This document shows positions 887 to 61,755 of a stretch of 64,000 nucleotides of DNA, in pieces (position 1 is the stretch's first letter; the number at the start of each line of letters is the position of its first letter). Source of the DNA: Eledone cirrhosa (taxonomy: Eukaryota). Below the pieces are notes generated by a model. The model was not told the origin of the DNA. It saw only the letters and a list, made by a program, of their open reading frames with translations, and made no database searches. The position numbers were made by a program, and so were the translations under genes. The stretch covers positions 18,600,001 to 18,664,000 of the forward strand of contig OZ024759.1 in assembly GCA_964016885.1 (NCBI GenBank), read 5' to 3'.

Positions 887-951
887 AATATATATATATA
901 TATATATATATAATATATAAGATCAAAAGATGGTTAAAGGAGTTCCATGTA

Positions 952-1018
952 TTTTATTATGCGCATTTCAAAAACAAACATCATCATGCAATAATATTTG
1001 TGTTTTCATCAGATAAAA
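952..1018 (-). ncRNA. Type-I hammerhead ribozyme (family A, left arm)
   Basis: Minus strand: TTTTAT CTGATGA aaac[ACAAATATTATT gcat GATGATGTTTGT]tttt GAAAT GCGC ATA ATAAAA. 6-bp stem I, palindromic ATGCGCAT helix III. Confidence 0.75.
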
Positions 1019-1145
1019 CAGGAGGACATGATATGAAGGCTAAAAAACACTTGTGGATAGTGCAGTTTTAAATCAACATATCATATGTTGATTTAAAACT
1101 GCACTATCCACAAGTGTTTTTTAGCCTTCATATCATGTCCTCCTG

Positions 1146-1212
1146 TTTTATCTGATGAAAACACAAATATTATTGCATGATGATGTTTGTTTTTGAAATG
1201 CGAATAATAAAA
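1146..1212 (+). ncRNA. Type-I hammerhead ribozyme (family A, right arm)
   Basis: Mirror copy of 952-1018 with GCGC>GCGA in the helix III loop. Confidence 0.7.
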
Positions 1213-2021
1213 TACATGGAACTCCTTTAACCATCTTTTGATCTTATATATTATGTATACTCCAGTCCTACAAACTGTAGAATGCTTTTTATCCGATATC
1301 TGCATTGCTTTATTGTACTACAATAAAACTCACCTCCTACATTATATATATATATATATATATATATATATATATATATATATAAAATCCTTATCGAGCC
1401 CTCTACGGATTTTAGTCTTTACATTTATTATTACTATATATATATATATATATATATATCCCCTTCTTCTTTTCGAGTAATCTCTCATTCGAAGGTGAAG
1501 CATTCTATTTTTCTAATGGCTAGAATATATGCGGCTCACCACACCTGCATACTCATTGATTTCTCCACTAACTTGACCAGTTTTGCCAACCCATTATCGA
1601 AGTAATATTCGGTTATCTGCGAAGCCACTTGTGCTCACAGCACCGACGTCTTCTAATTAAACTGATGATTGACACATAAACTATTATAATGATTTAACTA
1701 TTATAATGATTTAAGCAGGATTTTTATCAAGGCTTTCTCCTCTATATCCGACTTATTCTGCTAGACTAACCGACGGTAGCCATATCAGAAGCACTTTATG
1801 TATTATGTGGCTCTTCACCGCATACCTAGATTTATATAATAACGAATGGAAGGATCAGAAAAGACAAGTGCGTTCGAATTCATTGTCCAGAGAGTCAGGC
1901 CTCAACCACTGCCTTCAATCAGAAATAGTTGGTTCTGCTTGTTTGCATTAATGGAAGCACAGTTTATGTCCCTGTTTAATCTGTAACTTAATTATGGCCT
2001 GCCCTGTTTATACATACATAT

Positions 2022-2400
2022 ATGATGATGGCTGCACCCTCGTTATAGAGTATGGCCATTGCATGATATACCATTATTAATAATTAATAAAGGGTGGTGG
2101 ATTGGCAGTATCGGTGGAGGGTCGGACGCCATGCTTTCCAGCATAGTTACGTCCCTTTACGATCTGAGTTCAAATCCCGCCGAGGTTGACTTTGCCTTTC
2201 ATCCTTACGGGGTCGATAAAATAAAGTACCAGTAATGCACTGGGTAATTGCTGGCCTTGTGCCAAAAGTAGAAACAATTAATAATTAATAATTAATTCTA
2301 TCGTGCAATGCCTGTGCGTGAAGATATTTTTGAAAGTGAGGAAAGACTGTACAGTGAACCAATCCCACTCTCTGAGCGACAGTAGCTATAACCCGAAAAG
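2022..2400 (-). mobile_element. Short RTE-related non-autonomous element interrupted by a SINE
   Basis: Ends resemble family C (tggctgc..tcgtt..gagtatggcca; gcaatgcctgtg..tgaag). Uninterrupted homolog at 49691-49776. Confidence 0.55.
2093..2280 (+). mobile_element. tRNA-headed SINE
   Basis: Pol III A-box-like TGGCAGTATCGG, B-box GAGTTCAAATCC (2166-2177), body gcctttcatccttacggggtcgataaaataaagtaccag, ATTA tail. Many copies in the window. Confidence 0.9.
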
Positions 2401-2435
2401 AAGAAAAGATTAACATACATACATACATACATACA

Positions 2436-3018
2436 TGGTGGCTGCCAACTCGTTTTCGAGTACGGCCACTACTTTATATCCATGTAGGAGAACCCCTACC
2501 GATGCGCTGAACGAGTGTGACTTTTTAGTCCAGCAAGTGACTTGAAAACTCTGGTACAAACACTACACTTGTGACAATTATTGACACATAGTGCTAGGCC
2601 CATGGTACCATGTGACGACAAGTGCAGAGAGATCTCCAGATATAAAGCAATGCCTGTGCCGGGAAGCTTTTATAGTGAGCAAAGGCACTGCACAAAGCCA
2701 GTCCCACTCTCTTAACCAAGATGATATTTACCAAAAAGAAGAACAAGTCAACATCATTGGATACCATCAGAGTTGCAGGTGTTATATCAGAGTTTTCCTT
2801 CTCTAGAATTCTGCCTTGACAAAGGCTAAGGGGTCATCTCTCCCGGTGATTTTGGATGGCCATTGACTCTTAAGAGCTCCTTTGCCCTTTGACAGGTTTT
2901 GTTTTTAGTCCTGCAGGATGTCCAAAGTCACCCTCTTCACCAAGAAACCTTGGTGTGGTTGCCAGTTTAGTCGCCAACGATCCGACCATGAGACAGGTTG
3001 TACTGGGTGACCTGACAG
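2436..3018 (-). mobile_element. Bipartite non-autonomous RTE-derived element, family C, copy 1
   Basis: ~580 bp, near-identical to 4441-5050 and 58799-59219. RTE 5'-UTR-like motif (aaggcagaattctag..gaaggaaaactctg) plus a 3' end encoding a C2H2-like finger. Confidence 0.7.
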
Positions 3019-3639
3019 ATACATACATACATACATACATACATACATACATACATACATACATACATACATACACACACACTTACGCACACATGCAGAC
3101 ATACATACAAACTTATATACGCACATTCATGCACTCGCACATATACATATACTTGTATGTATGTATATATATGCATATATATATATATATGCATATATAT
3201 ATACACACATATAAATATATATGCATATATATACACACATACATATATATATATGCAGACTCATATACATATACGTCCACGTACACAAGCATGCATGTGT
3301 ACATAAATACATGCATGCATAATATTTATATATATATGTGTGTGTGTGTGTTTATGTGCGTGCATGTGTGTGTGGGGGCGTGTTTGTCTGCGTGCGTATG
3401 TGTGTGTCCATGTGTGCAATACAAAATGAAATTCTCATATATATTAGAGAATAATTCTGATACGACTGTAACTAGATGGTTACGAGCTATTGTATACTCT
3501 GTTTAACTTGCTATCTTTAGAATATAGCTTGCACAACCAATAATATAGTTTTTCATTAAAAAGAACAGTTTTCCAACACGCACTCTTGCCATTTCATGTG
3601 AGTAAAGGAAGCCATTTTGTTTAGAAAGTTGCGTCTCAT

Positions 3640-59886: not shown

Positions 59887-60026
59887 AATTAGAAAGTGAA
59901 CAACAGAGATGTTAACACCTCTGTCTGATGACCGATCCAGACGTATATTAATATTGTCTGGAATCCTGAAACCTTTGGTAATGGAGTAGTTATATTTTGT
60001 GTTGTCCACTTTCTAATTACCTAACA
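59887..60026 (+). mobile_element. Mini fold-back element containing HHR at 59919-59986
   Basis: CTCTGT CTGATGA cc GATCCAGAC..GTCTGGAATC ct GAAAC CTTTG GTA ATGGAG. Terminal inverted repeat aattagaaagtgaacaaca / tgttgtccactttctaatt. Confidence 0.68.
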
Positions 60027-60051
60027 TATATATATATATATATATATCTAT

Positions 60052-60172
60052 CTAAGGCGGGTAAAATTCCCGAGATCCATGGACGAGTTCTCTCCAGCGG
60101 TCTCTGTCCCTCATTATCGCTGCCATGTCCTGCATCTCCAACAGACCAGTGTCTGTCCTTAGGGTATCAACA
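60052..60172 (-). mobile_element. RTE 3' tip, homolog of 765-886
   Basis: Direct sequence match in reverse complement. Confidence 0.85.
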
Positions 60173-60230
60173 TATGATATATATATCAATGATATTAATA
60201 AAGGGAAACTATATTTATAAAACCATATTT

Positions 60231-60289
60231 ATTCTCTTATATATATTTCAAGGGTACCAAAACTTTGGTACGCTCTCATCAGATAAAAT
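60231..60289 (-). ncRNA. Type-I hammerhead ribozyme, homolog of 33855-33915
   Basis: Minus strand: ATTTTAT CTGATGA gag GTACCAAA..TTTGGTAC cctt GAAAT ATAT ATA AGAGAAT. Confidence 0.68.
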
Positions 60290-60941
60290 ACAAAGTTTGT
60301 TATATAAATAGTGACATACCCAGGAATCAGACCTTAACGGTTCAAGTTCCGTTTGGATAGTGAAAGGAAAGAGGGAAAAGGGGATGAAAGGAAAAAAAAC
60401 AAATTATTTTGATGAATATGCAAATGAAGTTGAAGCGTAGGGCTGAAAAAAAAATCGTTATTTTTAGACGCTAGGTAGATTAAAATAATTATTAGGATAT
60501 ATATATGTGGGAAGAAAAAAGAGAAGCTTATATTAATAGTATTACAGTGTACGTGAATTTAAAAATTAAAAATTGTTGAAGTGGTGGAAAGTATTTAACT
60601 ATATCATGACTTATAATATTGTATGTATAATCCTTATAATTAGATTTACGAAGAATTATGGTTGTAAAACGATTTTATCTTATTATATTACAACAGGTTG
60701 TAAATATATAAATATAAATATTATTGGTGATTATATGCTGTTATGTTTTATAGATATATAACACACGTATTAATTTGTTTACATTTCTAATATAAATTAC
60801 GAAGGATGTTGAGTTTACATTTTAAATATATAGTTAAGAAAAAAGACGTAGTTCACATTTTAAGAGAAGAACATTTTGTACATTCAAATAGTTTCATAAA
60901 AAATTGAAAATATTTGCTTTTATATATATATATATATATAT

Positions 60942-61447
60942 TGGTAAAAGGAAAAGAAAATGCTGACAAATTGTTCCCAGTGAAAAATAGTTTAATTAGG
61001 AATAAGTAAAAATTAGTCATAGTATTGGTTAGTATTCAGTTTTGGTTTTAAGTTTTACCGGTTGCGCATTTCTAATGCTTTTCAAAAATAATTTTGAGAT
61101 AGAGCGCCCGTGATGTTTGCTCTAATCTGATTAGTTTTGGAAATTCTACCTGTTTTATGTGAAAAAAGTGGCTCCAGATGTATTAAAATAAGTTTCGCGC
61201 CAATTCGTGTTGCAAAAATTCTTGTGGTCAAAACAATTTTGATTGGTCGGAAGAGGTCATGTGAAAGTTAAAAATTGATTTTGCGCCATATTGTGGGTTT
61301 GACTCGGCTGATTGAGAAGTCACTGAAAAATAACTATTTTTCACTGGGAACAGTGAAATAACTATTTTTCACTGGGAACAATTTGTCAGCATTTTCTTTT
61401 CCTTTTACCAATATATCATAACTCGTGTGTTACACCTCTATTCTTTT
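60942..61447. mobile_element. Family E longest copy: long left arm, short inverted arm (~61360-61411), tail
   Basis: tggtaaaaggaaaagaaaatgctgacaaattgttcccagtgaaaaatagtt is inverted at the right end. Same tail as 23202-23240. Confidence 0.82.
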
Positions 61448-61496
61448 ATATATATATATATATTTCTTTATTTGCATATCTCGCTATGTATATAGA

Positions 61497-61755
61497 TATA
61501 TTGTTATACTTGGGGAGGGTCATATTTGTGTAATATTGCCAGAATTAATAACAGAACACACTCACTGTTTGGTTGGTTTTCGCTTTTCGCTTCTGTGTCT
61601 TTTATATCGGTAATCTAATTTATTCGGTCCTCAATGTTGCCATTGACTGACCGTTGGACAATATTACACAAATATGACCCTCCCCAAGTATAACAATATT
61701 TGTTTCGACACACGATTTCAGATAAAAAACCTCGCAAAACTAATTCGTCGCCGTT
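61497..61755. mobile_element. Element with ~42-bp inverted repeats (61498-61538 / 61659-61699) and a one-sided tail
   Basis: atattgttatacttggggagggtcatatttgtgtaatattg is matched by its reverse complement. Confidence 0.7.

Follow-up and report, generated by a model that had tools for sequence, protein, structure and literature searches.

The window analysed here is a stretch of 64,000 nucleotides from Eledone cirrhosa (contig OZ024759.1, positions 18,600,001 to 18,664,000), and it contains thirteen listed loci at which a sequence lies next to its own inverted copy between runs of TA. Judged by their sequence, these palindromes appear to be head-to-head 3'-end fragments, corresponding to the pseudo-long terminal repeat (pLTR), of Penelope-like elements (PLEs) inserted into (TA)n, as shown for families A, C and E. 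One arm of a two-ended insert almost always carries a terminal tail that the other lacks, and we consider it likely that the inserts are made by twin target-primed reverse transcription (twin TPRT), with two cDNAs started at two fixed RNA sites and joined together. Cross-matches sort the loci into nine groups, A to I, with G, H and I counted separately and H weak. The features are as follows; the coordinate used for each locus in the initial annotation is in brackets, and negative numbers are positions on the family reference scales used.

905..1344 (910): family A, putative Hydra-clade PLE 3' end; the tail-less arm covers 905-1081 (-) and the tailed arm 1081-1344 (+), of which about 1260-1344 is tail; hammerhead motifs from a motif scan at 950-1020 (-) and 1144-1214 (+)
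6162..6735 (6163): family B; tail-less arm 6162-6552 (-) with a SINE-like (short interspersed element) insert at 6322-6514; tailed arm 6555-6735 (+) with an internal deletion; no link to an open reading frame (ORF) found
7357..7556 (7359): family C, putative Hydra-clade PLE 3' end; palindrome 7357-7475, then an 81-nt tail to 7556
9024..9179 (9020): family C, reversed; partial-tail arm 9024-9113 (-), tail-less arm 9119-9179 (+)
18136..18479 (18141): family A; tail-less arm to 18312, equivalent to -262; tailed arm from -168, the tail-less arm being longer
19376..22392 (absent from the initial annotation): retrozyme-like array; inverted arm 19376-19949 plus 5.3 tandem copies of a 460-bp unit, each with a minimal hammerhead; lies between TA runs with the same layout as the palindromes
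22575..22812 (22581): family D; palindrome 22575-22726, tail of about 86 nt; the tailed arm starts with a non-native G ahead of the hot-spot A described below; no ORF link found
22820..23243 (22829): family E, Neptune-like PLE 3' end; the palindrome covers 22820-23210 and has a tail of 33 nt
36897..37668 (36904): family F; the tail-less arm extends to -458 and the tailed arm begins at -378, with a tail of 70 nt; hammerhead-like motif at 37462-37542, by inspection
40069..40253 (40071): family C; palindrome 40069-40172 plus tail
58368..58775 (58371): family G; 254-nt tail-less arm (-) with a hammerhead at 58412-58458; 23 nt common to the tailed arm; tail of about 125 nt
59887..60030 (59887): family H; short arms, the weakest case; no ORF link found
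60936..61449 (60942): family E; the tail-less arm extends to -476, the tailed arm begins only at -82, and the junction has a filler of 26 nt
61498..61760 (61497): family I; 163-nt tail-less arm, 41 nt common, 60-nt tail; no ORF link found

Self-BLAST and local alignment with dinucleotide repeats masked recovered an inverted pair at all thirteen coordinates. The same alignment found two further pairs, at 19376 and at 23969, the latter being a short palindrome adjoining a TA run (23969-24056) that the initial annotation does not list. The aligned spans are 905-1259 (98.6%), 7357-7475, 9060-9176, 18136-18397, 22575-22726, 22820-23210, 36897-37598 and 40069-40172. Common arms are short at the other loci: 27 bp and 71 bp at 6162, with the SINE-like insert between them, 57 bp at 60936, 41 bp at 61498, 23 bp at 58368 and about 20 bp at 59887. 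Local inverted matches filled 25 rows in the real, TA-masked window versus 1 row in total across ten block-shuffles, which confirms the loci as real palindromes. Across the 3.0-Gb assembly, exact motif matches number 13,905 for family A, 14,096 for C, 2,109 for E and 872 for F, with none in the reversed controls of each. A search of the whole window against Rfam returned hairpin and TA noise only, with microRNA (miRNA) models below threshold.

It is very improbable that these structures are fold-back chimeras of sequencing or assembly. The arms of an insert diverge by 1.5-4.2%, and an artefact is unlikely because only 18 of 125 arm pairs are identical, as the initial annotation had argued from substitutions between arms; the ends are also fixed within each family. 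Restriction-site-associated DNA sequencing (RAD-seq) reads from another study run into TA at the same two family A positions in three of three runs, and they show both end types together with opposite-strand joints (e.g., 1542 to 1709, again in three of three runs). At the one window locus tested (36420-37660) no read or contig was found across the central junction, which is the point that a chimera would explain. One exact 512-nt contig covers the left end of this locus and may stem from the assembly's own sample.

The assignment of the arms to PLEs, already proposed in the initial annotation, comes from the long copies. Hydra-clade PLEs are marked by a CxCX5C linker, the lack of CCHH, CxxC and CxH motifs flanking the conserved E and N, DKT and an RWK-like motif, in the passages of PMC8557442 that describe them. 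Locus L126 reads, in order, (TA)n, an inverted 112-nt tail arm, a pLTR (715-1804), a 766-amino-acid stop-to-stop ORF, a second pLTR that stops 84 nt before the tail end, and (TA)n. The family A ORF contains RLRW, DKT, YRDD, CNCPIKNKC and YFG, to which the C-terminus, intact in L031, adds CNLC and CLH, and its reverse transcriptase (RT) and GIY-YIG domains are collinear with the repeat end in both L126 and L031. Pfam gave no match for this ORF; the protein falls in Atlas clusters carrying GIY-YIG or RVT_1 at 0.95, and a homologue search returned four proteins only, the best from Argonauta hians (37%). Long copies of family C hold a similar ORF, with 39% identity to that of A (the N-terminus of C not being covered) and with CNCPDRSTC, CNLC and CKH. 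Family E matches the profiles of RVT_1 (8.7e-8) and GIY-YIG (8.7e-7) and has CDRPNCGIC and CSGC..YIG downstream of the RT thumb region; it has no intact ORF. On these sequence marks A and C would be Hydra-clade ends and E Neptune-like. Naiad elements were rejected as a source, since they need an N-terminal endonuclease and that of A, C and E is C-terminal. One genomic copy of family G is collinear with a Hydra-like endonuclease, family F has two conflicting endonuclease neighbours with one copy each, and the neighbour search found no ORF link for B, D, H or I; a DNA search that skips common words gave no match for D. Families B, D, F, H and I are placed with the PLEs by architecture only.

Predicted hammerhead motifs accompany several of these ends. 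The motif scan gave 12 matches versus 1 in the reversed control and covers A, G and the 460-bp array. The family C pLTR (L300, L163) has a hammerhead-like three-stem fold in most of 26 motif matches, with a variant core that has an extra U and AAAAG or ACAAG in place of ANGA, and a hammerhead core was recognised by inspection in family F. The sole match to the Rfam hammerheads was HH9 below threshold (19.3 versus 52 bits), with none at two other sites, and a canonical hammerhead was not found in family E. Further hammerhead-like, PLE-type ends of other families lie in the window at 270-500, 38509-38553 and 45941-45980. Besides the pLTR-ORF-pLTR arrangement with an inverted tail arm in L126, there are tandem 1.3-kb units of family F: at C1:130882144-130893766 four tandem copies of its motif on one strand stand head to head with six on the other, so that both arms are tandem arrays of this unit. 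Within a family A insertion, at L276:1300-2650, a monomer of the 460-bp unit is fused directly to the family A endonuclease region, which suggests that the family A protein mobilises this unit and switches templates. In another family A insertion (L017:1078-1757), tandem repeats run from -263 to approximately the predicted ribozyme cut site (-133), possibly by RT jumping onto cleaved RNA ends.

For a survey of the insert ends, 296 loci and the window were mapped to naturally occurring long copies of families A, C, E and F, and duplicates and locus-edge clusters were removed. Samples drawn from top hits are biased to tail-bearing copies of hot-spot length and are reported apart, except that they are pooled in the microhomology counts below and in the sequence comparisons between arms (identical pairs and polymorphic sites). 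Among the unbiased or incidental copies, 105 inserts were two-ended, and 103 of these combined a tailed with a tail-less end, while two had two tails and none had two tail-less ends; about 52, 27 and 25 would be expected if the ends were independent. The corresponding figures in the top-hit samples are 92, 2 and 0 of 145. The 352 unbiased or incidental clusters also included 247 that lacked two clean ends, made up of 135 fragments, 90 copies with one arm and 22 in which one or both ends lay off-site. Single-arm copies also occur in the window, at 11454-11605 (A), 17477-17675 (E), 24160-24322 (D), 8008-8377 (G) and 38684-38765 (C). Family by family, the tail-less end is mostly found at -83/-84 (A), -77 (C), -26 (E) and -68 (F), and families D, G and I have the same two end classes. 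The initial annotation was right that the outer ends are fixed, and the short AT/TA motifs it quoted are present at the tail-less end; as a correction to it, the partial tail at 9020 is on the left. The TA targets it named are borne out as well: 192 of 206 outer ends of unbiased or incidental copies are flanked by at least 75% TA (62 of 66 in A, 103 of 110 in C), compared with 12% of random 12-mers. An origin as miniature inverted-repeat transposable elements (MITEs) or DNA transposons was rejected, as symmetric terminal inverted repeats are absent and the ends are asymmetric in 103 of the 105 two-ended inserts. The first 100 matches to the family A motif include 30 close pairs, of which 26 diverge and none converge.

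The two arms of an insert differ in how far they reach upstream. The tail-less arm is longer by more than 10 nt in 33 of 103 inserts, the tailed arm is longer in 18, and 52 are equal; in 10 of the 103 the arms share no sequence at all. The loci at 18141, 36904, 58371, 60942 and 61497 are examples in the window, and in L126 a tail-less arm of 4.5 kb accompanies a tailed arm of 112 nt. Three of 13 family A copies that seem to have one arm in fact have a tiny inverted tail arm of 11-15 nt. Neither arm is generally a copy of the other, which indicates that both were templated separately. Nevertheless, both arms of an insert come from one lineage: they agree at 254 of 258, 117 of 118 and 29 of 30 polymorphic sites (143, 87 and 19 expected), and 210 joins are within a family versus one between families. 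This single cross-family join (L064, about 1260-1640) links a tailed arm of E with a tailed arm of C, each close to its hot spot.

The initial annotation had fold points differing between copies of a family. The junctions are indeed diverse, but A, C and D each have a strong hot spot, with inner ends within 5 nt of one site in 30 of 66 cases in A and 69 of 110 in C. An inner-end cluster in family E comprises 16 of 38 top-hit copies and none of 12 unbiased ones, and the inner ends of F look scattered on inspection. At the site concerned, families A, C, D and E all have a pyrimidine followed by an A, a context that we take to resemble an RNA polymerase II initiator. The hot spot of family A lies at -262, window position 1083, and that of D at about 22651. 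The base ahead of the hot-spot A is often a non-native G. In hand counts of the first 100 listed matches, the preceding base was G in 49, A in 10 and T in 41 for family A (native C excluded), and G in 66, A in 22 and C in 12 for family D (native T excluded); in 17 of those for D, and in some for A, the base can also be assigned to the other arm. In family A, 130 junctions have G on both arms versus one with A on both; in family D, 103 have the non-native G on both arms versus 2 in the control, and 83 have the native T on both. The spacers between G-bearing arms are mostly 0-2 nt among the junctions listed. One identical double-G junction occurs at twenty loci that carry several haplotypes, the two arms agreeing within each haplotype, and a tailed end is paired with a tail-less one in 17 of the 20; this argues for independent recurrence of the junction and not for one inherited master. 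Extra G residues at LINE-1-mediated insertions have been ascribed to mRNA capping (PMC11702581), and untemplated G is described in PMC4729875, in the portions of these papers that bear on the point. The strong hot spot in A, C and D looks like the 5' end of a capped RNA. At asymmetric junctions, 40 of 59 direct joins have at least 2 nt of microhomology, compared with 35% in simulated junctions (p=3e-6), and filler of at least 4 nt occurs in 21 of 88 versus 1.2% simulated; both would fit end-joining between two cDNA 3' ends. Four inner ends in family C form a minor group where the ribozyme is predicted to cut, which is too few to support a claim.

A scheme of twin TPRT would account for the head-to-head polarity, the single tail, the finding that either arm can be longer, the non-overlapping arms and the G on both arms. 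The GIY-YIG nuclease would cut both strands of a TA run, and each 3'-OH would pair with a short AU motif and prime a cDNA. One cDNA would start at the tail end and the other 33-125 nt upstream, probably in a single, possibly dimeric, ribonucleoprotein (RNP) and on one transcript or two sister transcripts. Both cDNAs would extend toward the RNA 5' end. If transcription starts inside the pLTR, the cap would be reached in a few hundred nucleotides at most and a cap-templated base gained, so that a cDNA would end either by run-off at the cap or by earlier truncation before end-joining. Annealing of the two cDNA 3' ends would follow, by way of 1-6 nt of microhomology or of added bases, and host repair would fill in. 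The tail would be the interval between the two start sites and would thus stand on one side only. Four parts of this scheme are inferences: the cutting of both strands, the dimer, the site where transcription starts and the pathway of repair. The scheme agrees with in vitro results on a PLE that cuts and extends both strands and begins at two internal sites on either side of the tail (PMC11167929).

Two other routes take the second arm from a folded molecule. The initial annotation had proposed snap-back, in which the tail-end cDNA folds and copies itself as far as an internal AT motif, after which TA microhomology lets the second end of the target capture it. The 52 near-symmetric inserts and the 18 with a longer tailed arm agree with this, as do the AT/TA motifs at the tail-less end and the alleles shared between arms. 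However, snap-back requires the tailed arm to contain everything found in the tail-less one, and the data contradict this: the tail-less arm has sequence missing from the tailed one in 33 of 103 inserts and none in common in 10, the L126 tail-less arm extends over 4.5 kb, and the spacers of 0-2 nt that dominate the listed double-G junctions are too short for a snap-back loop. As a general route snap-back is excluded; at most it may account for some of the symmetric inserts, and we regard it as improbable. The earlier interpretation is partly supported: its account of the origin, the targets and the outer ends is borne out, but its snap-back route with second-end capture is not supported. The published alternative, and the one mechanism found in the literature searched, is self-priming on an antisense transcript, giving a hairpin that a nuclease resolves asymmetrically so that the tail may be on either arm (self-priming as hypothesised in PMC3846280, the tail by endonuclease resolution in PMC8557442). 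It lets either arm be longer and explains arms of the same family and allele, but the G lies 5' of an initiator-like base of the sense strand on both arms, and this suggests that the template was a capped sense RNA. Very large loops would be needed for non-overlapping arms and for tail arms of 11 nt, spacers of 0-2 nt are not accommodated, and the tail as an interval between two RT starts has been shown in vitro (PMC11167929, in its results on start sites). We consider this route unlikely, if less so than snap-back.

The palindromes might also be whole units, either non-autonomous copies of a few masters (MITE-like elements or retroposed hairpins) or products of post-insertion rearrangement between neighbours. 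Some junctions recur letter for letter, and one join, that in L064, crosses families. Against this, the junctions are highly diverse, identical ones occur on different haplotypes (the 20 loci above), the ends are asymmetric, unlike terminal inverted repeats, and the close pairs described above are divergent in 26 of 30 cases and never convergent. An origin of this kind has, in our view, little probability, about that of snap-back. Twin TPRT differs both from the snap-back of the initial annotation and from the published self-priming hypothesis, and several points weigh against it. In vitro, a Poseidon PLE uses both starts alike on both strands and without target homology (PMC11167929, in the experiments described there), and the strict pairing of starts consequently lacks a biochemical explanation. 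Families B, D, F, H and I have no link to an ORF, and DNA is the sole source for both the cap and the start site. In family C the excess of G is weak (5 of 27 non-fused), and runs of TA hide any target-site duplication. Concordance between arms could also come from subfamily age or gene conversion, and the 247 of 352 clusters that are not two-ended imply that many inserts form or decay in other ways.

The layout itself has already been published, and the mechanistic evidence is the new part. In published PLE insertions a 5'-truncated copy lies inverted, the tail is often confined to one end, and the targets are (TA)n (PMC8557442 and PMC3846280, in their descriptions of architecture). Hydra-clade PLEs share with families A and C a C-terminal GIY-YIG with CxCX5C, DKT, no CCHH, the (TA)n target, a pLTR hammerhead (predicted here), the inverted 5'-truncated copy and the one-sided tail; unlike them, the present tails measure about 81-85 nt instead of 30-40, and family C has a variant hammerhead core. 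The passages of PMC8557442 on this clade give neither a count of end pairing nor a 5' hot spot. They list an element for Octopus bimaculoides, Hydra-1_Obim, without a pLTR, and its likeness to the families here is one of description, not of alignment. Neptune-clade PLEs have a C-terminal endonuclease, a CX2-5CxxC linker and CCHH (as characterised in PMC8557442), whereas family E is without an intact copy and no canonical hammerhead was found in it. In the in vitro work on Poseidon PAc, a PLE whose protein is a predicted dimer cuts and extends both strands of an AT-rich target, and two internal RT starts bound the tail; the account, in the parts that concern us, neither pairs each start with a strand nor accounts for the inverted arm, and the start sites here carry short AT motifs matching the target, unlike those of PAc (PMC11167929). 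The head-to-head Penelope pLTRs of Adineta, one of them tailed, have palindromic junctions and an initiator-like motif; antisense self-priming is proposed there, whereas the counts here favour two sense-templated cDNAs (PMC3846280, in its section on these pLTRs).

In LINE-1 twin priming two primers come from one target, the second priming site is variable and the segments barely overlap. Here, in contrast, both starts are fixed and the cDNAs usually overlap, which yields a palindrome. The internal junction with microhomology or filler and the extra G at the full-length 5' end are alike in the two systems, as far as PMC4729875 and PMC11702581 describe them in the relevant passages. The retrozyme-like hammerhead array at 19376-22392 may be compared with bioRxiv 10.64898/2026.07.22.740005. 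A twin-priming or cap-G account for PLEs was not found in the literature searched, the scope of which did not include subscription papers such as Evgen'ev and Arkhipova 2005 and Arkhipova 2006.

The window also holds repeats of other kinds. There are two minisatellites, 45 copies of a 96-bp unit at 41463-45793 and 11 copies of a 91-bp unit at 53884-54871. Fragments that by eye resemble ORFs of non-LTR retrotransposons lie at 9459-9986, 35257-36085, 55659-57436 and 450-887. One SINE-like repeat is present in many copies (2094-2280, 6322-6514 within the family B arm, 28638-29337, 39531-39715 and 47809-47994).

How the tandem and inverted repeats of PLEs and their tails form is stated to be unresolved in the passages of PMC8557442 that address it, and the junction counts bear on this question. 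On balance we favour the view that the inverted pLTR with a one-sided tail is the footprint of an obligatory two-primer reaction, in which one RNP primes on opposite strands and both cDNAs copy to the cap, so that the junctions would mark the transcription start site of each family from DNA alone. The thousands of short copies in this genome turn the question of mechanism into counts that separate the models, and they yield exact predictions for the in vitro system, namely the start sites, the pairing of start and strand, and the copying of the cap. Many short hairpins in such TA-rich genomes would then be remnants of PLEs, and not MITEs or miRNA precursors.

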